DNA from: a virus
Lineage: Duplodnaviria > Heunggongvirae > Uroviricota > Caudoviricetes
IMG/VR virus record: IMGVR_UViG_2923360383_000008
Strand: one strand, 5' to 3'
DNA: 41,720 nt
Below are positions 5,950 to 38,500 of the stretch, one piece after another (position 1 is the stretch's first letter; each line of letters starts with the position of its first letter). Under the pieces are notes generated by a model, which had not been told where the DNA came from, did not search any database, and worked only from the letters and a program-made list of their open reading frames with translations. The translations under genes and the position numbers were made by a program.

Positions 5950-6019
5950 ACGGATAGTCCTGGTATTGTTCCATCACATCTTGAGGATGCTCTTCGAACT
6001 CTTCAAATTCTTCTTCCAT
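5933..6019 (-). CDS. Small acidic ORF (lambda orf28-like)
   Basis: 28 codons MEEEFEEFEEHPQDVMEQYQDYPYDYDY found by hand translation; overlaps ral start. Confidence 0.3.
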   Translation of the reverse strand: MEEEFEEFEEHPQDVMEQYQDYPYDYDY

Positions 6020-6162
6020 ATATCACCTTAAATAGTGGATTGCGGTAGTAAAGATTGTGCCTGTCTTTTAACCACATCAGGCTCGGTGGTTCTCGTGTAC
6101 CCCTACAACGAGAAATCGGATAAACTCTATTCACCCCTACAGAGAGCAAAAGAGAAACGCCG

Positions 6163-6744
6163 ATGAACAACTCATGGTGGCAGGAACTAATGCATTTTTT
6201 CCTGCAAGGAATGACACTTAAACAGTTGATTCATATGCTAATCATCCTGATCATATTGATTATTGTTATGCCGGTAAGCGTAAAAGAATGGATAAACCTG
6301 CATAATCCAGAAATCCTTCCTCATTACTGGATGTATTACATCCTGTTGTTTTGCGTTAGCTATGTGCTTAACGGCGTTGTTAATTCCGCTTATCACGCTG
6401 TGACTGAAAGAATTGAGGTATTCGCTGCTCAGAAGCGCAAATCTAAAGAAGAAAAATATGTGCAAGATTTGTTTGATTCGTTAACTCTTGGAGAAAGAGC
6501 GTATTTGGCATTCGCTGTAGCCGCTAATAACCAGCTACAAACGGAAAAGGGCGCTCATGAATCAATTTCATTGCTCAAAAAAGGACTCCTCGTTCGAAGG
6601 CCTCCTGCTGTTGGATATCCTGATACCGACCGTTTCGTTATCCCTGAAAGCTATAGACATGAGTGCTACATTAGGTTTGCCGGGAAGGCAGACAGCCTTA
6701 TGGATGAACTTATCGCTCAGGATAAGCATGGCAAAAACAAGTAA
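6163..6744 (+). CDS. sieB: Superinfection exclusion protein B
   Basis: 193 aa with N-terminal hydrophobic segment (LIHMLIILIILIIVMPV); rightward gene embedded in the leftward operon exactly as lambda sieB. Confidence 0.85.
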   Translation: MNNSWWQELMHFFLQGMTLKQLIHMLIILIILIIVMPVSVKEWINLHNPEILPHYWMYYILLFCVSYVLNGVVNSAYHAVTERIEVFAAQKRKSKEEKYVQDLFDSLTLGERAYLAFAVAANNQLQTEKGAHESISLLKKGLLVRRPPAVGYPDTDRFVIPESYRHECYIRFAGKADSLMDELIAQDKHGKNK

Positions 6745-6760
6745 TTAGCAAATGAATTTA

Positions 6761-7033
6761 TCATCTCGCCGTCAGTTGTTTTGATTTCCGGTAGCCTGCC
6801 GCGTAAAGAGCTACGTTCGGAAGACAAGTTGAACCTTCATATTTTCTGGTCAACGTTGTCAGAGTTATCACTTCTGCTCTCATTGCTGGTTTGAGCTTGC
6901 ATTGCAAGACCACTCGTGAAGGGGTTGGCCTGTGTAGCTTGTCGGAGCTGATCGCCTCCTGACTTTGCAGATTTGCGCGACGAGCTCTACGGCGAGAAGC
7001 TGCGGTGCCTTTAAATTCTGTTTTTCTGGACAT
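6761..7033 (-). CDS. N-like transcription antiterminator (P22 gp24-type C-terminus)
   Basis: 90 aa from MSRKTEFKGTAASRRRARRANLQ (arginine-rich motif) to ...VALYAAGYRKSKQLTAR; RBS GGGAGG 7 nt upstream; first gene downstream of pL; the longer ORF-track start is treated as leader. Confidence 0.75.
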   Translation of the reverse strand: MSRKTEFKGTAASRRRARRANLQSQEAISSDKLHRPTPSRVVLQCKLKPAMRAEVITLTTLTRKYEGSTCLPNVALYAAGYRKSKQLTAR

Positions 7034-7131
7034 GGATTCCTCCCGAATAAACTTTGGCGATGCAATCTCGAAGCTCCTCCTGAGACGGTTGCTTCGGCAT
7101 TGCATCCCACAGCTTATGTGGTTGGGTGATC

Positions 7132-7176
7132 TGGCTTTTCAGCCACGTAGTCGAGAGTCGACGTTGTTTAAAGAGC
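7132..7176 (-). promoter_or_regulatory. Putative nutL (boxA GCTCTTTAAA; boxB UGGCUGAAAAGCCA)
   Basis: In the pL transcript, a boxA-like GCUCUUUAAA is followed by a 5-bp stem with GAAA loop; near-identical arrangement downstream of cro. Confidence 0.4.
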
Positions 7177-7219
7177 CTGCCAGTCTGTTCCATTTGGCTT
7201 CCAGCGTCCTGCTGACGGT

Positions 7220-7265
7220 TAAATAGTACGATATGTACTTTACAAGATCAATACAATTTGTTGTA
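7220..7265 (-). promoter_or_regulatory. pL promoter with oL operator repeats
   Basis: Minus-strand -35 TTGATC (plus 7246-7251), 17-nt spacer, -10 TACTAT (plus 7223-7228); TACGATATGTA and TACAATTTGTTGTA inverted repeats overlap it. Confidence 0.45.
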
Positions 7266-7435
7266 AGTTGGCGTGGTTTTTTATAACGCTTTGTATTTAA
7301 TAGTGTTGTTTTTTAGCGTGGATGTATTGCCTCGGCGATGTAAGGAGAGATCAGAATTGCGTGGTTTAGTGGGTTGCATCTATTTATTTTTCAATAAATA
7401 TAATTGGTTATGTGTTTTTAGGTGGGCGAACGTGA

Positions 7436-7464
7436 GGCAAAGAAAACCCGGCGCTGAGGCCGGG
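7436..7464 (-). terminator. Intrinsic terminator ending the cI operon
   Basis: Hairpin CCCGGC-gctgag-GCCGGG followed on minus strand by TTTTCTTT, immediately downstream of the 250-aa gene. Confidence 0.5.
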
Positions 7465-7469
7465 TTGTA

Positions 7470-8222
7470 TTATGCTGCAAGTCTCTTAACCCAAGTCTCT
7501 CTTTTGGAGAATGGTAGAACTTGGCTTGATTCATGGAAGAGTAAGGAGAGTTGTTGCATTTGATCACCAATTGCTTCGCTGTCTATAACAACAAATCTGT
7601 TGTTATACTCCTCACTTGAAGCTTTAAGATCAATTAGTTTCCCAAGCAATGAGTAAGCACTATTCCAGCTTCCTCCGTGTTTCACGCTTGATGTAAAAAC
7701 GTATTTAGGTATGTCGGTTTTTATTGTTACAGGGACGGTAATTTGATGTCCACTCAAGCCATATACGTTTTCACGAAGAGAAAGTGCGTCTCTAAGCTCT
7801 GTGTGATATAGATAATCAATAACCATACTTTCAAACTTTTCAGCTTGAACTGGCTGATACCAGTCTAACGACAAAGTTGATGCGAGTATACCAGCTCTAA
7901 TTATGTTCGATGTAATCGCACCGACATCCTTTTCTGTTGCCCAAGCAATGATTTCTCCTCGAGCATTGAGTTCTGCGCCTTCTTTAAGCAGTAATTGTCG
8001 TATCTCATCAAGTCGTTTTTTGGTAAGCGAGATCCCTCTTGCCTCCATATTCATTAAGGCATCGCATCTGTCACTAACTAAATACCTACCATTGACTTCA
8101 CGGATAAAGGCACCGACATGCTCTCCATCATCACAGTAAGTGAATGGACTGATAATTCTCAAGGTCTTGCCTATTGGATGGCATTCGAAACCTAGTTGTG
8201 AGATCACTGTTGAGCACATCAT
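7470..8222 (-). CDS. Hypothetical protein, distal gene of rexAB-slot operon (candidate phage-exclusion factor)
   Basis: 250-aa ORF, ATGA-coupled to upstream gene; AT-rich relative to rest of prophage; no motif I recognise. Confidence 0.6.
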   Translation of the reverse strand: MMCSTVISQLGFECHPIGKTLRIISPFTYCDDGEHVGAFIREVNGRYLVSDRCDALMNMEARGISLTKKRLDEIRQLLLKEGAELNARGEIIAWATEKDVGAITSNIIRAGILASTLSLDWYQPVQAEKFESMVIDYLYHTELRDALSLRENVYGLSGHQITVPVTIKTDIPKYVFTSSVKHGGSWNSAYSLLGKLIDLKASSEEYNNRFVVIDSEAIGDQMQQLSLLFHESSQVLPFSKRETWVKRLAA

Positions 8223-8776
8223 ATTCCAAACCCCATTTGCCCCGACTCATCTTCAAGCGGTAAAGGTATTCTCCCAGAGTAAGTTATGTTCAGATGTTTA
8301 CAGAAGTAATTCCAATACCCTACCAGGTCATCTGGGTTTATGTCATCTTCGATTGGAAACGCTATTCTATCACTATAGTATCCAGCTTCTTCATAGTATA
8401 CATGGTAGTGAGCACCGTAAATGATATCTTGGTACTTCGGATGATCGACCTTGTAACTATTCGTGTGTTTGTCAAAGTGATAGGTATCTACCGCGAAAAC
8501 CCTCTTGTTATGATAGAAAGCAATAATATTTATTTTAGGGTAAGAAATCGGGTCATCAGGTTCTGAATCCTGATCTGGTTTCCATTTCAGTTCAAACTTT
8601 AGCCCTTGTATAGGTATACAATCCTCATCCAAGGGGATGATATGGGCTTGTAGCCACATATCAGAGCGACTTGGTTTCTGTTTCCATTTAACGCCAGAAA
8701 AGTTAACTATTTTTTTACAATAAAGTACTTTATCAACTTCTACTTGGCTTGGCTGATAATCATCTATTTTTGCCAA
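8219..8776 (-). CDS. Hypothetical protein, proximal gene of rexAB-slot operon (candidate phage-exclusion factor)
   Basis: 185-aa ORF beginning 40 nt downstream of cI stop; apparent TTG start (first ATG is codon 40), so start uncertain; acidic, Tyr/His-rich; no motif I recognise. Confidence 0.55.
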   Translation of the reverse strand: MAKIDDYQPSQVEVDKVLYCKKIVNFSGVKWKQKPSRSDMWLQAHIIPLDEDCIPIQGLKFELKWKPDQDSEPDDPISYPKINIIAFYHNKRVFAVDTYHFDKHTNSYKVDHPKYQDIIYGAHYHVYYEEAGYYSDRIAFPIEDDINPDDLVGYWNYFCKHLNITYSGRIPLPLEDESGQMGFGI

Positions 8777-8815
8777 TGTTTACCGCCCTGTAAATTGTAG
8801 ATAAAAGTGGTTTCA

Positions 8816-9469
8816 TCACCCAAACGTCTCTTCAGGCCATTGGCTGGCGATAACTTTCCCCACAACGGAACAACTCTCATTGCATGGGATCATTGGGTAT
8901 TGTGGGTTTAGTGGCTGTAGAAACACCTGACCGCTATCCCTGATCAGTTTCTTGAAGGTAAATTCATCACCACCAAGTCTGGCTATGCAGAAATCGCCGG
9001 GCTCAACAGCTTGCTCAGGGTCAACCAGAATTAACATCCCGTCAGGAAAGCTGGGTTTGGAACCTGTTGGTGCGGTCATTGAGTTACCTTCAACCTCAAG
9101 CCAGAATGCAGAGTCACTGGCTTTTTTGGTTGTGCTTACCAATCTCTCCGCATCGCCTTTGGTAAAGGTTCTGAGTTCTGGAGAGAACATCCCAGCCTGA
9201 ACATGAGAAAAAACAGGGTACTCATATTGTTTTTTAACTGGGGCCGATGAGTATTCGCCAACAGGTGAAAATGTCCCGTCGTGGTTGAATGATATGTTAT
9301 CAATACCAAGGTATTTAAACACCACACCAATATCACTAAGAGATGGATGACGAGATCCGCGCAACCAGTGTCCAATCCCACCCTGCGTCATACCTAGCTC
9401 TTCGGCTAACTTCTCTTGAGTTATGCCGAGCTCTTTCATTCTGGATCTAGCCAGTTCATACCATTTCAT
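8816..9469 (-). CDS. cI: CI-type prophage repressor (HTH + LexA/S24-like autocleavage domain)
   Basis: C-terminal ~140 aa ([18 protein letters not shown]...GNSM...FKKL...[10 protein letters not shown]) matches lambda cI; N-terminal HTH ([22 protein letters not shown]) differs; start chosen at MKWYEL with AAGGA 7 nt upstream, ORF-track start is 9517. Confidence 0.85.
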
Positions 9470-9509
9470 TTTCATGTCCTTATTATTACGCTCTGTACTG
9501 GAACCATCC

Positions 9510-9560
9510 ATGCACAATGTGTATTTTTACTTGTATTCGCAAAGTACATATTGTATTTTT
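9510..9560 (+). promoter_or_regulatory. pR promoter with oR operator repeats (divergent pRM region)
   Basis: -35 TTGTAT (9531-9536), 17-nt spacer, -10 TATTTT (9554-9559); ACAATGTGT and TACATATTGTA inverted repeats of the same type as at oL. Confidence 0.45.
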
Positions 9561-9586
9561 TTATTCGTGTTTACTATGGAGGGCAT

Positions 9587-9802
9587 ATGAGCAACCTACG
9601 AAAATATCGAGAGTCACTGAATATCTCTCAAACAACACTTGCTAAGGCAGTTGGATGCACACAGGGAGCTATCGGACATTGGGAATCTGGTCGTCGCTTC
9701 CCAGACCTTAAAACATGCCGTGCTCTTGTTGCGTGCCTAAACAAGTTAGGCGCAAAAGTCAGTCTTGATGACGTGTTCCCGCCGGAACACAAAGCCGCTT
9801 AA
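9587..9802 (+). CDS. cro: Cro-like HTH (XRE family) regulator
   Basis: 71 aa; HTH QTTLAKAVGCTQGAIGHWESG; RBS GGAGGG before ATG; divergent from cI. Confidence 0.8.
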   Translation: MSNLRKYRESLNISQTTLAKAVGCTQGAIGHWESGRRFPDLKTCRALVACLNKLGAKVSLDDVFPPEHKAA

Positions 9803-9812
9803 TAAGCGGATC

Positions 9813-9858
9813 CGCTCTTTGTAACAACGGACATTCGTCCTACGTCGCTGAAAAGCGA
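9813..9858 (+). promoter_or_regulatory. Putative nutR (boxA CGCTCTTTGTAA; boxB UCGCUGAAAAGCGA)
   Basis: boxA-like CGCTCTTT followed by a 5-bp stem with GAAA loop, between cro and cII. Confidence 0.35.
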
Positions 9859-9943
9859 GTTCCAAGATATCTGACCAACTAAGGCCATATGCGTTTCCAC
9901 GCATACCTTTCAACTAACTATTCACTATTGGAAATCTTAAGAA

Positions 9944-10240
9944 ATGGAAAGAACAAGTTACAGCAAACTATCACAGCGTGACGTTGATCGCGCAGAAACA
10001 GATTTACTTATCAATCTGTCAGCTATTACCCAGCGCGGTCTGGCAAAGATGATTGGCTGTCATGAATCGAAGATAAGCAGAACGGACTGGAGATTTATTG
10101 CTTCGGTCTTGTGTGCTTTCGGAATGGCATCAGACATCAGTCCGATTAGCAGGGCTTTTAAGTATGCGCTTGATGGACTCACCAATAAAAAACGCCCGGC
10201 GGCAACCGAGCGTTCTGAACAAATCCAGATGGAATTCTGA
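9944..10240 (+). CDS. cII: CII transcriptional activator
   Basis: 98 aa; C-terminus LTNKKRPAATERSEQIQMEF matches lambda cII; N-terminal half divergent. Confidence 0.85.
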   Translation: MERTSYSKLSQRDVDRAETDLLINLSAITQRGLAKMIGCHESKISRTDWRFIASVLCAFGMASDISPISRAFKYALDGLTNKKRPAATERSEQIQMEF

Positions 10241-10272
10241 GGTCATTACTGGATCAATCCACAGGAGTCATT

Positions 10273-11172
10273 ATGACAAATACAGCAAAAATACTCAACT
10301 TCTGCAGAGGTAACTTTGCCAAACAGGAGCGTAATGTGGCAGATCTCGATGATGGTTACGCCAGACTATCAAATATGCTGCTTGAGGCTTATTCAGGCGC
10401 AGATCTGACCAAGCGACAGTTTAAAGTGCTGCTTGCCATTCTGCGTAAAACCTATGGATGGAATAAACCAATGGACAGAATCACCGATTCTCAACTTAGC
10501 GAGATTACAAAGTTACCCGTCAAACGGTGCAATGAAGCCAAGTTAGAACTCGTCAGAATGAATATTATCAAGCAGCAAGGCGGCATGTTTGGACCAAATA
10601 AAAACATCTCAGAATGGTGTATCCCTCAAAACGAGGGAAAATCCCCTAAAACGAGGGATAAAACATCCCTCAAATTGGGGGATTGCTATCCCTCAAAACA
10701 GGGGGACACAAAAGACACTATTACAAAAGAAAAAAGAAAAGATTATTCGTCAGAGAATTCTGGCGAATCCTCTGACCAGCCAGAAAACGACCTTTCTGTG
10801 GTGAAACCGGATGCTGCAATTCAGAGCGGCAGCAAGTGGGGGACAGCAGAAGACCTGACCGCCGCAGAATGGATGTTTGACATGGTGAAGACCATCGCGC
10901 CATCAGCCAGAAAACCGAATTTTGCAGGGTGGGCTAACGATATCCGCCTGATGCGTGAACGTGACGGACGTAACCATCGCGACATGTGTGTACTGTTCCG
11001 CTGGGCATGCCAGGACAACTTCTGGTCCGGTAACGTGCTGAGCCCGGCCAAACTCCGCGACAAGTGGACCCAGCTCGAAATCAACCGTAACAAGCAACAG
11101 GCAGGTGTGACAGCCTGCAAACCAAAACTCGACCTGACAAACACTGACTGGATTTACGGGGTGGATTTATGA
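10273..11172 (+). CDS. O: Replication initiator O
   Basis: 299 aa, lambda O length; contains ori iterons internally; RBS ACAGGAG. Confidence 0.95.
   Translation: MTNTAKILNFCRGNFAKQERNVADLDDGYARLSNMLLEAYSGADLTKRQFKVLLAILRKTYGWNKPMDRITDSQLSEITKLPVKRCNEAKLELVRMNIIKQQGGMFGPNKNISEWCIPQNEGKSPKTRDKTSLKLGDCYPSKQGDTKDTITKEKRKDYSSENSGESSDQPENDLSVVKPDAAIQSGSKWGTAEDLTAAEWMFDMVKTIAPSARKPNFAGWANDIRLMRERDGRNHRDMCVLFRWACQDNFWSGNVLSPAKLRDKWTQLEINRNKQQAGVTACKPKLDLTNTDWIYGVDL
10621..10760 (+). repeat. ori iterons (four ~19-bp ATCCCTCAAAACGAGGGA-type repeats) plus AT-rich tract
   Basis: Direct repeats atccctcaaaacgagggaaa / atcccctaaaacgagggata / catccctcaaattggggga / atccctcaaaacaggggga followed by an A-rich stretch, inside O. 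Confidence 0.85.
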
Positions 11173-11870
11173 AAAACATCGCCGCACAGATGGTTAATTT
11201 TGACCGTGAGCAGATGCGTCGGATCGCCAACAACATGCCGGAACAGTACGACGAAAAGCCGCAGGTACAGCAGGTAGCGCAGATCATCAACGGTGTGTTC
11301 AGCCAGTTACTGGCAACTTTCCCGGCGAGTCTGGCTAACCGTGACCAGAACGAACTGAACGAAATCCGCCGCCAGTGGGTTCTGGCTTTCCGGGAAAACG
11401 GGATCACCACAATGGAACAGGTTAACGCAGGAATGCGCGTAGCCCGTCGGCAGAATCGACCATTTCTGCCATCACCCGGGCAGTTTGTTGCATGGTGCCG
11501 GGAAGAAGCATCCGTTATCGCCGGACTGCCAAACGTCAGCGAGCTGGTTGATATGGTTTACGAGTATTGCCGGAAGCGAGGCCTGTATCCGGATGCAGAG
11601 TCTTATCCGTGGAAATCGAACGCGCACTACTGGCTGGTTACCAACCTGTACCAGAACATGCGGGCCAATGCGCTGACTGACGCGGAATTACGACGCAAGG
11701 CTGCCGATGAACTGACCTGTATGACAGCGCGAATTAACCGTGGTGAGACGATACCTGAACCAGTAAAACAACTTCCTGTCATGGGCGGCAGACCTCTAAA
11801 TCGTGTTCAGGCGCTGGCGAAGATCGTAGAAATTAAAGCTAAGTTAGGACTGAAAGGAGCAAGTGTATGA
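11169..11870 (+). CDS. P: Replication protein P (DnaB helicase loader)
   Basis: 233 aa matching lambda P; ATGA overlap with O. Confidence 0.95.
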   Translation: MKNIAAQMVNFDREQMRRIANNMPEQYDEKPQVQQVAQIINGVFSQLLATFPASLANRDQNELNEIRRQWVLAFRENGITTMEQVNAGMRVARRQNRPFLPSPGQFVAWCREEASVIAGLPNVSELVDMVYEYCRKRGLYPDAESYPWKSNAHYWLVTNLYQNMRANALTDAELRRKAADELTCMTARINRGETIPEPVKQLPVMGGRPLNRVQALAKIVEIKAKLGLKGASV

Positions 11871-35537: not shown

Positions 35538-38500
35538 ATGGGTAAAGGCAGCAGTAAGGGGCATACCCCGCGCGAAGCGAAGGACAACCTGAAATCATCC
35601 CAGATGCTGAGCGTGATAGACGCCATCAGCGAAGGGCCGGTTGAAGGTCCGGTGGATGGATTAAAAAGCGTGCTGCTGAACAGTACGCCGGTGCTGGACA
35701 GTGAGGGGAATACCAATATATTCGGCGTCACGGTGGTGTTCCGGGCCGGTGAGCAGGAGCAGACTCCGCCGGAGGGATTTGAATCCTCCGGCTCCGAGAC
35801 GGTGCTCGGTACAGAAGTGAAATATGACACGCCGATCACCCGGACCATCACGTCGGCAAACATTGACCGTCTGCGTTTTACTTTCGGCGTGCAGGCACTG
35901 GTGGAAACCACCTCAAAGGGGGACAGGAATCCATCGGAAGTCCGCCTGCTGGTTCAGATTCAACGTAACGGTGGCTGGGTGACGGAAAAAGACATCACCA
36001 TTAAGGGCAAAACCACGTCGCAGTATCTGGCCTCGGTGGTGGTGGATAACCTGCCGCCGCGCCCGTTTAATATCCGGATGCGCAGGATGACGCCGGACAG
36101 CACCACAGACCAGTTGCAGAACAAAACGCTCTGGTCGTCATACACCGAAATCATCGATGTGAAACAGTGCTACCCGAACACGGCACTGGTCGGCGTACAG
36201 GTGGACTCGGAGCAGTTCGGCAGCCAGCAGGTGAGCCGTAATTATCATCTTCGCGGGCGCATTCTGCAGGTGCCGTCGAACTATAACCCGCAGACGCGGC
36301 AATACAGCGGTATCTGGGACGGAACGTTTAAGCCAGCATACAGCAACAACATGGCCTGGTGTCTGTGGGATATGCTGACCCATCCGCGCTACGGCATGGG
36401 GAAACGTCTTGGTGCGGCAGATGTGGATAAATGGGCGCTGTATGTCATCGGCCAGAATTGCGACCAGTCAGTGCCGGACGGCTTTGGCGGCACGGAGCCG
36501 CGCATCACCTGTAATGCGTACCTGACCACACAGCGCAAGGCGTGGGATGTGCTCAGTGATTTTTGCTCGGCGATGCGCTGTATGCCGGTATGGAACGGGC
36601 AGACGCTGACATTCGTGCAGGACCGACCGTCGGATAAGGTGTGGACCTATAACCGCAGTAATGTGGTGATGCCGGATGATGGCGCGCCGTTCCGCTACAG
36701 CTTCAGCGCCCTGAAAGACCGCCATAATGCCGTTGAGGTGAACTGGATTGACCCGGATAACGGCTGGGAGACGGCGACAGAGCTTGTGGAGGACACGCAG
36801 GCCATTGCCCGTTACGGTCGTAACGTCACGAAGATGGATGCCTTTGGCTGTACCAGCCGGGGGCAGGCACACCGCGCCGGGCTGTGGCTGATTAAAACGG
36901 AGCTGCTGGAAACGCAGACCGTGGACTTCAGCGTGGGTGCAGAAGGGCTTCGCCATGTACCGGGCGATGTCATTGAAATCTGTGATGATGACTATGCGGG
37001 GATCAGCATCGGCGGGCGCGTGCTGGCGGTGAACAACCAGACGCGGACACTGACGCTCGACCGTGAAATCACGCTGCCATCCTCCGGCACCACGCTGATA
37101 AGCCTGGCTGACGGACAGGGGAATCCGGTCAGCGTGGAGGTCCAGTCCGTCACCGACGGCGTGAAGGTAAAAGTGAGCCGTGTTCCTGACGGCGTTGCAG
37201 AATACAGCGTGTGGGGGCTGAAGTTGCCAACGTTGCGCCAGCGCCTGTTCCGCTGTGTGAGTATCCGTGAGAACGATGACGGCACGTATGCCATCACTGC
37301 CGTGCAGCATGTACCGGAAAAAGAGGCCATCGTGGATAACGGGGCGCACTTTGACGGCGACCAGAGCGGCACGGTGAATGGTGTCACGCCGCCAGCGGTG
37401 CAGCACCTGACTGCCGAAGTCACCGCAGACAGCGGGGAATATCAGGTGCTGGCGCGCTGGGACACGCCGAAGGTGGTGAAGGGGGTGAGCTTTATGCTTC
37501 GCCTGACCGTGGCAGCGGATGACGGCAGTGAGCGGCTGGTCAGCACGGCCCGGACGACGGAAACCACATACCGCTTCAGGCAACTGGCGCTGGGGAACTA
37601 CAGGCTGACAGTCCGGGCGGTAAATGCGTGGGGGCAGCAGGGCGATCCGGCATCGGTATCGTTCCGGATTGCCGCACCGGCAGCGCCGTCGCAGATTGAG
37701 CTGACACCGGGGTATTTTCAGATAACCGCCACGCCGCATCTTGCGGTTTATGATCCGACGGTACAGTTTGAGTTCTGGTTCTCGGAAAAGCGGATTGCGG
37801 ATATCAGGCAGGTTGAAACCACAGCACGCTATCTTGGCACGGCGCTGTACTGGATAGCCGCCAGTATCAATATCAAACCGGGCCATGATTATTATTTTTA
37901 CATCCGCAGTGTGAACACCGTTGGCAAATCGGCATTTGTGGAGGCTGTTGGCCAGCCGAGTGATGATGCATCCGGCTATCTGAATTTTTTCAAAGGAGAG
38001 ATAGGGAAAACCCATCTGGCTCAGGAGTTGTGGACGCAGATTGATAACGGTCAGCTTGCGCCTGACCTGGCTGAAATCAGGACGTCCATTACGGGTGTCA
38101 GCAATGAAATCACGCAGACCGTCAATAAGAAACTGGAAGACCAGAGTGCAGCGATCCAGCAGATACAGAAGGTTCAGGTTGATACAAATAATAACCTGAA
38201 CAGCATGTGGGCTGTGAAGCTGCAGCAGATGCAGGACGGACGCCTTTATATCGCGGGTATTGGTGCCGGTGTTGAGAATACTCCTGACGGTATGCAGAGT
38301 CAGGTGCTGCTGGCGGCGGACAGGATTGCGATGATTAATCCTGCGAATGGCAACACAAAGCCGATGTTTGTTGGGCAGGGCGATCAGATATTCATGAACG
38401 AAGTGTTCCTGAAATATCTGACGGCTCCCACCATTACCAGCGGTGGCAATCCCCCAACGTTTTCACTGACACCTGATGGTCGACTTTCTGCGAAAAATGC

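Follow-up and report, generated by a model that had tools for sequence, protein, structure and literature searches.

A mosaic cI repressor and six putative operators in the VT2-Sakai-type immunity region of a lambda-like prophage

The 41,720 nucleotides of the virus record IMGVR_UViG_2923360383_000008 (Caudoviricetes), referred to here as the window, are a lambda-like prophage, and the system considered in this work is its immunity region, with the repressor gene cI and the control regions oL and oR. The genes are arranged in the order sieB, N (minus strand), oL, a two-gene cassette (minus strand), cI (minus strand), oR, cro, cII, O and P. Bases 6700-10300 are 100% identical to the Escherichia phages ev207, ev017, PhiR57_1 and PhiR63_2, the last two of which show 99.4-99.8% identity across the whole window, and the same immunity region is carried by E. 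coli Nissle 1917. An original prediction, made from the letters of the DNA, had proposed that cI is a hybrid with a lambda-type C-terminal part, assembled by recombination between domains, and that matching operator repeats flank it on both sides. The repressor gene and its two parts are as follows.

8816-9475, minus strand: cI repressor, 219 amino acids (open reading frame (ORF) and Pfam matches), start at ATG 9475 (MKMKWY...), second possible ATG at 9469
8816-9226, minus strand: lambda-type hinge and C-terminal domain (CTD) of cI, residues 84-219, from DNA and protein matches to lambda
9227-9475, minus strand: non-lambda N-terminal domain (NTD) of cI, residues 1-83, with the recognition helix TQGGIGHW, from protein comparison

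The two parts of the repressor have clearly different affinities. Residues 84-219 correspond to residues 102-237 of lambda cI (counted from Met) and are identical at 135 of 136 positions, the sole change being W130L, which bears out the prediction of a lambda-like stretch of about 140 amino acids; the segment also matches the solved lambda CTD structures 3bdn, 8gmu and 1f39, and Pfam places a Peptidase_S24 domain at residues 87-209 (E = 1.1e-28). The NTD is, as predicted, not that of lambda. It holds a helix-turn-helix (HTH) of the Pfam HTH_3 family (residues 11-58, E = 1.9e-10), shares only 21.7% identity with lambda and has the recognition helix QGGIGHWLR where lambda has QSGVGALFN. Its sequence is found unchanged in the Shiga toxin (Stx) phages Stx1 Morioka and Stx2 II and in phage Nil2, and at 98.8% identity in VT2-Sakai; it is 35% identical to the window's own Cro. 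A more distant, full-length homologue of cI is C1 of the Salmonella phage g341c (P22-like SPN9CC, ST64T and relatives), whose NTD is 49% and whose CTD is 80% identical to that of the window repressor. P22 c2, at 37% identity overall, and the cI of phage 21, at 35%, were rejected as sources of the NTD. Ser132 and Lys175, the equivalents of lambda Ser149 and Lys192, do not vary among 10 aligned repressors, and the hinge residues Ala94-Gly95 occupy the place of lambda Ala111-Gly112, both within the sequence VQAGMF. By sequence, cI thus has the HTH, the S24 Ser/Lys pair and the Ala-Gly site that characterize the self-cleaving repressors of the LexA/lambda-cI type.

At the DNA level the change from one part to the other is abrupt, and the alignment with lambda that had been suggested for finding the junction places it between codons 83 and 84. 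On one side, blastn aligned window positions 8815-9226 with lambda 37226-37637 at 93.4% identity and without gaps, in a match that runs from one base past the cI stop codon to the hinge; on the other side, no match to lambda was detectable by blastn across the N-terminal part of cI, oR and cro, and every one of codons 70-83 differs from lambda. Codons 84-219 differ from lambda at 27 of 411 nucleotides, and 26 of these differences are synonymous, leaving W130L as the only non-synonymous one. The relationships of the two halves are also in conflict: in the NTD the window repressor is closer to g341c (49%) than to lambda (22%), and in the CTD window and lambda are 99% identical with g341c equally distant from both, at 80% in protein and at 74% (window phage) and 73% (lambda) in DNA. 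The step at a single codon boundary, the unsaturated silent sites and the disagreement between the trees of the two halves together support recombination inside cI, as the original prediction had held. With silent sites so far from saturation, the lambda and window lineages share the C-terminal segment by fairly recent common descent.

The exchange is not particular to the phage in the window. Among most phages with this NTD the DNA of the CTD is 96.8-100% identical (the outlier, vB_EcoP-720R6, is at 91.6%), and the same DNA is only 92-95.4% identical to that of phages with a lambda NTD, which makes the event an old one. HK97 cI likewise carries the lambda-type C-terminal DNA, at 94.3% identity. 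In the Lambdavirus PDP110P1 (cI at 364-1008 of the compared sequence) a third N-terminal class precedes this lambda-type C-terminal sequence, with the junction further in, around residues 116-123 of the window cI, and the DNA homology stopping at window position 9130; exchange inside cI has therefore happened more than once and at different points. Of 5426 complete E. coli genomes, 775 (about one in seven, ~14%) contain a 501-bp probe spanning the window's junction at a coverage threshold of at least 80%.

Full-length identity to a single known repressor, which had been named as grounds for giving up the hybrid, does exist: all 219 residues are identical to CI of the Stx1-converting phage of strain Morioka V526. 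Since the Morioka repressor has the same hybrid make-up, this leaves the structure intact and removes only its novelty. The hybrid is in fact already known, having been described in 2000 for VT2-Sakai by Fattah et al., who, as cited in PMC10742460, found the CI proteins of VT2-Sakai and lambda to be highly similar in the C-terminal region, with low N-terminal similarity. Mosaicism of lambdoid cI at the level of domains is likewise established, and a review from the Koudelka laboratory (PMC3202840) offers the 933W repressor as an example. That repressor combines an HK022-like NTD with the CTD of H-19B, both unrelated in sequence to the domains of the window cI, and its CTD gives no cooperative binding (PMC3202840). 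As a discovery the finding therefore carries little weight, with the hybrid, the putative operators and the principle of domain swapping all present in the literature or in database annotation. What the analysis does provide is an assignment: by its cI, Cro and operator set the window prophage belongs to the VT2-Sakai immunity type. VT2-Sakai (Sp5), Stx1 Morioka and Stx2 phage II share with it the order N-oL-cassette-cI-oR-cro-cII. In VT2-Sakai-type phages the shared parts are 93-96% identical to the window in DNA and the genes of the cassette between oL and cI are unrelated; the window also differs in having phage-21-like late genes.

Each control region contains three putative operators of 17 bp, listed here with the sites they overlap (the promoters themselves are described further below).

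9542-9558, unstranded: oR1, AAGTACATATTGTATTT, covering the putative pR -10 hexamer; top-scoring site of the window
9510-9526, unstranded: oR2, ATGCACAATGTGTATTT, centre at -43 from ATG 9475; adjoins both putative -35 hexamers
9484-9500, unstranded: oR3, TATTACGCTCTGTACTG, overlapping the putative pRM -10 hexamer; centre at -17 from ATG 9475
7224-7240, unstranded: oL1, TAGTACGATATGTACTT, overlapping the putative pL -10 hexamer
7249-7265, unstranded: oL2, CAATACAATTTGTTGTA, overlapping the putative pL -35 hexamer; one substitution relative to VT2-Sakai
7282-7298, unstranded: oL3, TATAACGCTTTGTATTT, one substitution relative to VT2-Sakai

In the record of the Stx1-converting phage of strain Morioka V526 (NC_004913) each side has three annotated putative operators of 17 bp, and all six are found in the window. 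Sites oR1-3 agree letter for letter with the VT2-Sakai OR1-3 oligonucleotides (Table S1, PMC10742460); these three and oL1 are identical to the VT2-Sakai/Stx1-Morioka type set, from which oL2 and oL3 differ by one base each. Two of the repeats in the original prediction proved to be parts of these sites, TACATATTGTA of oR1 and TACGATATGTA of oL1. The third, TACAATTTGTTGTA, was out of register with the true site, oL2 (core TACAATTTGTT), and VT2-Sakai does not keep the terminal GTA; oR2, oR3 and oL3 had been missed. The proposed motif TACA-N3-TGTA is a fair idealization, but the window contains its strict form a single time, at 9545, and among the six operators only oR1 fits it exactly. The common core is rather TAC-N5-GTA, present without mismatch at 7227 (oL1), 9487 (oR3) and 9545 (oR1). 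Positions A5, C6, T11, G12, T13 and T16 are invariant, giving a consensus of approximately A-n-TAC-N5-GTA-n-T and a symmetric ideal of approximately A-n-TACA-N3-TGTA-n-T.

The six sites behave as one family. When a weight matrix was built from five of them, the sixth ranked between 1 and 9 among 41,704 positions in every case, and with the matrix of all six the score falls from 15.8 to 10.1 after the sixth site. Compared with VT2-Sakai, mismatches are found at 2 of 102 operator positions and at 17 of 139 positions in the non-coding DNA around them (Fisher p = 0.003). Phage g341c has annotated sites of the form ATAC-N5-GTAT and a CAC-N5-GTA site at the position equivalent to oR2, and its oR centres are spaced by 26 and 33 bp where those in the window are spaced by 26 and 32 bp. 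Within each phage cI and Cro have almost the same recognition helix (TQGGIGHW and TQGAIGHW in the window, TKGAVSHW and TRGAVCHY in g341c), and between the two phages both helices change together.

Putative promoters were assigned to both control regions from a relaxed scan, each with 8 of 12 matches to the hexamers.

9526-9554, plus strand: putative pR, TTTACT-17 bp-TATTGT
9482-9510, minus strand: putative pRM, TGGATG-17 bp-AATAAT
7223-7251, minus strand: putative pL, TTGATC-17 bp-TACTAT

The predicted overlap of the repeats with -35 and -10 elements of pR and pL is thus recovered with the relaxed scan and lost with a stricter one. The positions of pRM and pL agree with the annotation of NC_004913, in which the pR hexamers lie a few bases further right. 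The choice of the cI start bears on this arrangement. The longest ORF (8816-9517, minus strand) begins at TTG 9517, and the records are in conflict, with ATG 9511 (231 amino acids) in RefSeq and several phages and a truncated gene of 510 nt in the VT2-Sakai record. ATG 9511 falls within oR2, upstream of the putative pRM. In g341c an in-frame stop lies 7 codons 5' of the MKM start, and both phages have the same MKM start with the same ribosome-binding-site arrangement, AAGGA-ATG-AAA-ATG, making ATG 9475 or ATG 9469 the likely start. The -10 hexamer of the putative pRM ends 7 bases before ATG 9475 and transcription is predicted to begin near 9475, so that the cI maintenance transcript would be leaderless, as in lambda. 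The centres of oR2 and oR3, at -43 and -17 from this ATG, are close to the lambda values of -42 and -19, counted there from the start of pRM.

Taken together, we consider the region to be a VT2-Sakai-type lysis-lysogeny switch in a lambda-like prophage, with a mosaic cI and six operators, at a probability of about 0.9. In the proposed scheme, cI dimers would bind through the N-terminal HTH to the three 17-bp operators at oR and the three at oL, and would thereby shut off pR and pL. From oR2, cI probably activates pRM, in favour of which Glu21 and Glu25 of the window repressor align with the lambda activation patch (Glu34 and Asp38), and from oR3 it probably represses it. Cro, with an almost identical recognition helix, would compete for the same sites. 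The lambda-like CTD should confer dimerization, higher-order oligomerization and RecA-stimulated self-cleavage at Ala94-Gly95 by way of Ser132 and Lys175. The mosaic itself stems from an old recombination at the hinge, in which a CTD of the lambda lineage was combined with the NTD, operators and cro of a lineage related to g341c. The arrangement resembles lambda in gene order, in the three operators per side and in a lambda-like terminator segment after the cassette, and differs from it in the NTD, the Cro family, the operator sequence and spacings, N, and the cassette found in place of rexAB.

Several observations weigh against this interpretation. The stricter promoter scan (at least 9 of 12 matches) finds no promoter at oL or oR, and the leave-one-out score is lowest for oR2 and next lowest for oR3. 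No experiment with the cognate repressor was found in the accessible literature; the gel shifts published on these operators, according to PMC10742460, were made with lambda cI. The distances between operator centres (32 and 26 bp at oR, 25 and 33 bp at oL) are also unlike those in lambda (24, 23, 24 and 20 bp), although the domain that serves cooperativity is shared, and pairwise cooperativity in the manner of lambda is therefore not to be assumed. Cooperative pairing may be wired differently, the close pairs here being oR2-oR3 and oL1-oL2. The distance from oL1 to oR1 is 2318 bp, compared with 2407 bp in lambda, and long-range looping between oL and oR through the shared CTD is conceivable.

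It could be argued that no recombination took place and that the two halves belong to one vertically inherited repressor, in which the NTD diverged rapidly under selection for a new immunity. The NTDs of phage repressors do generally vary more than the CTDs, and the values of 49 and 80% for g341c are an instance of this within a single gene. A difference in rate does not, however, account for DNA identity that steps from undetectable to 93% at one codon boundary, nor for two halves with incompatible trees, nor for PDP110P1, where a third NTD class meets the same CTD sequence at another point; an old gene that had diverged slowly would also not have kept its silent sites so alike. We regard vertical divergence as very improbable. 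The same low standing is given to the notion that the repeats are chance palindromes of AT-rich DNA and not operators. Across the window TAC-N5-GTA is not enriched (6 occurrences against 4.0 expected), and an inverted-repeat finder with 6-nt seeds recovered no operator, an outcome explained by symmetric arms of only 3-5 nt. Yet half of the exact occurrences, three of six, fall within some 220 bp of control DNA, the leave-one-out ranks are high, the operators are better conserved than the spacers, and in g341c the position and spacing of the sites are kept although the flanks have diverged.

The specificity of immunity is less settled. By sequence, the phage has neither the NTD and recognition helix of the lambda immunity group nor its operators: sites of the lambda type (TATCACCGCCGGTGATA) are absent from the control regions, and the window holds a single match, at chance level, at position 732. 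Hetero-immunity to lambda is thus plausible. It is doubtful, though still conceivable, that this separation is incomplete and that weak cross-binding or mixed oligomers lead to partial cross-immunity or coupled induction. Fattah et al. 2000, as cited in PMC10742460, reported cross-immunity between VT2-Sakai and lambda, which counts against hetero-immunity; the same paper (PMC10742460) further gives shifts of the VT2-Sakai operators by lambda cI at apparent dissociation constants of 3.7-6.4 µM, and the CTDs of the two repressors are, as described, nearly identical. Against this stand the different recognition helices and the lack of lambda-type operators in the immunity region. The micromolar affinities are also 10-30 times weaker than those of lambda cI for its own OR1 and OL1, and a word search of PMC10742460 found no control with non-specific DNA ('non-specific' and 'nonspecific' appear in reference titles only). 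A slightly less likely proposal within the same range is that the window-type and lambda repressors form mixed dimers or oligomers in cells that contain both, a possibility raised by the near-identity of the CTDs and the presence of the module in a seventh of complete E. coli genomes; if true, it would bring about partial cross-immunity or coupled induction among phages that appear hetero-immune by sequence. For Sakai-type phages homo-immunity is predicted, given identical cI, Cro and oR. The same module is found in E. coli Nissle 1917 and in the E. coli type strain, which are hence predicted to be repressor-immune to Sakai-type Stx phages.

The remaining genes and signals of the region are listed below.

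9587-9802, plus strand: cro, 71 amino acids, HTH_3 type (Pfam HTH_3, E = 4e-12), recognition helix TQGAIGHW
6761-7105, minus strand: N antiterminator, ORF of 114 amino acids (Pfam N_peptide, E = 1e-32), annotated in a 90-amino-acid form in related records
9944-10240, plus strand: cII activator (Pfam Phage_CII, E = 7e-34)
9966-9953, minus strand: putative cII box, TTGCTGTAACTTGT, of the form TTGY-N6-TTGY at bases 10-23 of cII, marking pRE
7470-8776, minus strand: two-gene cassette, 185 and 250 amino acids (DUF1828), in the slot of lambda rexA-rexB
7445-7466, minus strand: terminator-like hairpin ending the cI operon, within the lambda-like segment 7345-7466

Cro is identical to VT2-Sakai Cro at all 71 positions and gave no blastp hit to lambda Cro, from which it also differs in fold class, in agreement with the expectation that it is not of the lambda kind. 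The antiterminator was likewise correctly recognized as having a P22 gp24-like C-terminus: N shares 40% identity over 99 amino acids with gp24, with a near-identical C-terminal end, and has no hit to lambda N. Near the immunity region blastn found lambda-like DNA in three islands and no others, namely the 3' part of cI (8815-9226), the segment 7345-7466, which corresponds to the terminator segment after rexB in lambda, and the sequence from 10178 onward, covering the end of cII and O. The cII gene is consequently itself a mosaic relative to lambda, with 98% similarity from 10178 (about codon 79 of 98) on into O and no lambda DNA similarity detectable by blastn in its first 78 codons. The exact lambda cII box, TTGC-N6-TTGC, is absent at cII; the record of phage 21 has its annotated TTGY-N6-TTGY box at the equivalent place.

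In E. coli Nissle 1917 a gene named 'phage repressor (pr)' has been reported to protect K-12 from lambda and stx phages (PMC5987069). The primers used for this gene map to window positions 9898-10268, the forward one exactly and the reverse one with mismatches at two bases at the junction with the vector tail, and the amplicon holds cII (9944-10240), not cI. The report was accordingly dropped as direct evidence of cross-immunity, and the protection it describes is probably an effect of cII and not repressor immunity.

Relative to VT2-Sakai, the edges of the cassette downstream of cI fall exactly at the cI stop codon and the terminator. The cassette matches the PADLOC candidate defence system PDC-M24, with E = 4.7e-10 for the B component and a weak match (E = 4.8e-4) for the A component, and the PHROG families of both genes are of unknown function. 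In other phages with this cI or a lambda-type cI the slot is filled by different genes, orf22 in VT2-Sakai and a NYN-domain gene in 2B8 and ev099. From these sequence comparisons the slot looks like a swap-in site for defence genes expressed from the prophage.

A search of positions 6000-11500 against Rfam returned nothing at the gathering threshold, and the phage records that match best list no Stx annotation among their features. The late (head and tail) region of the window, 19813-41720, is 99.5% identical to phage 21, and the immunity region is unrelated to imm21, the cI of phage 21 being P22-like. The pairing of phage-21-like late genes with a switch of another immunity type is a further case of module shuffling in this prophage.

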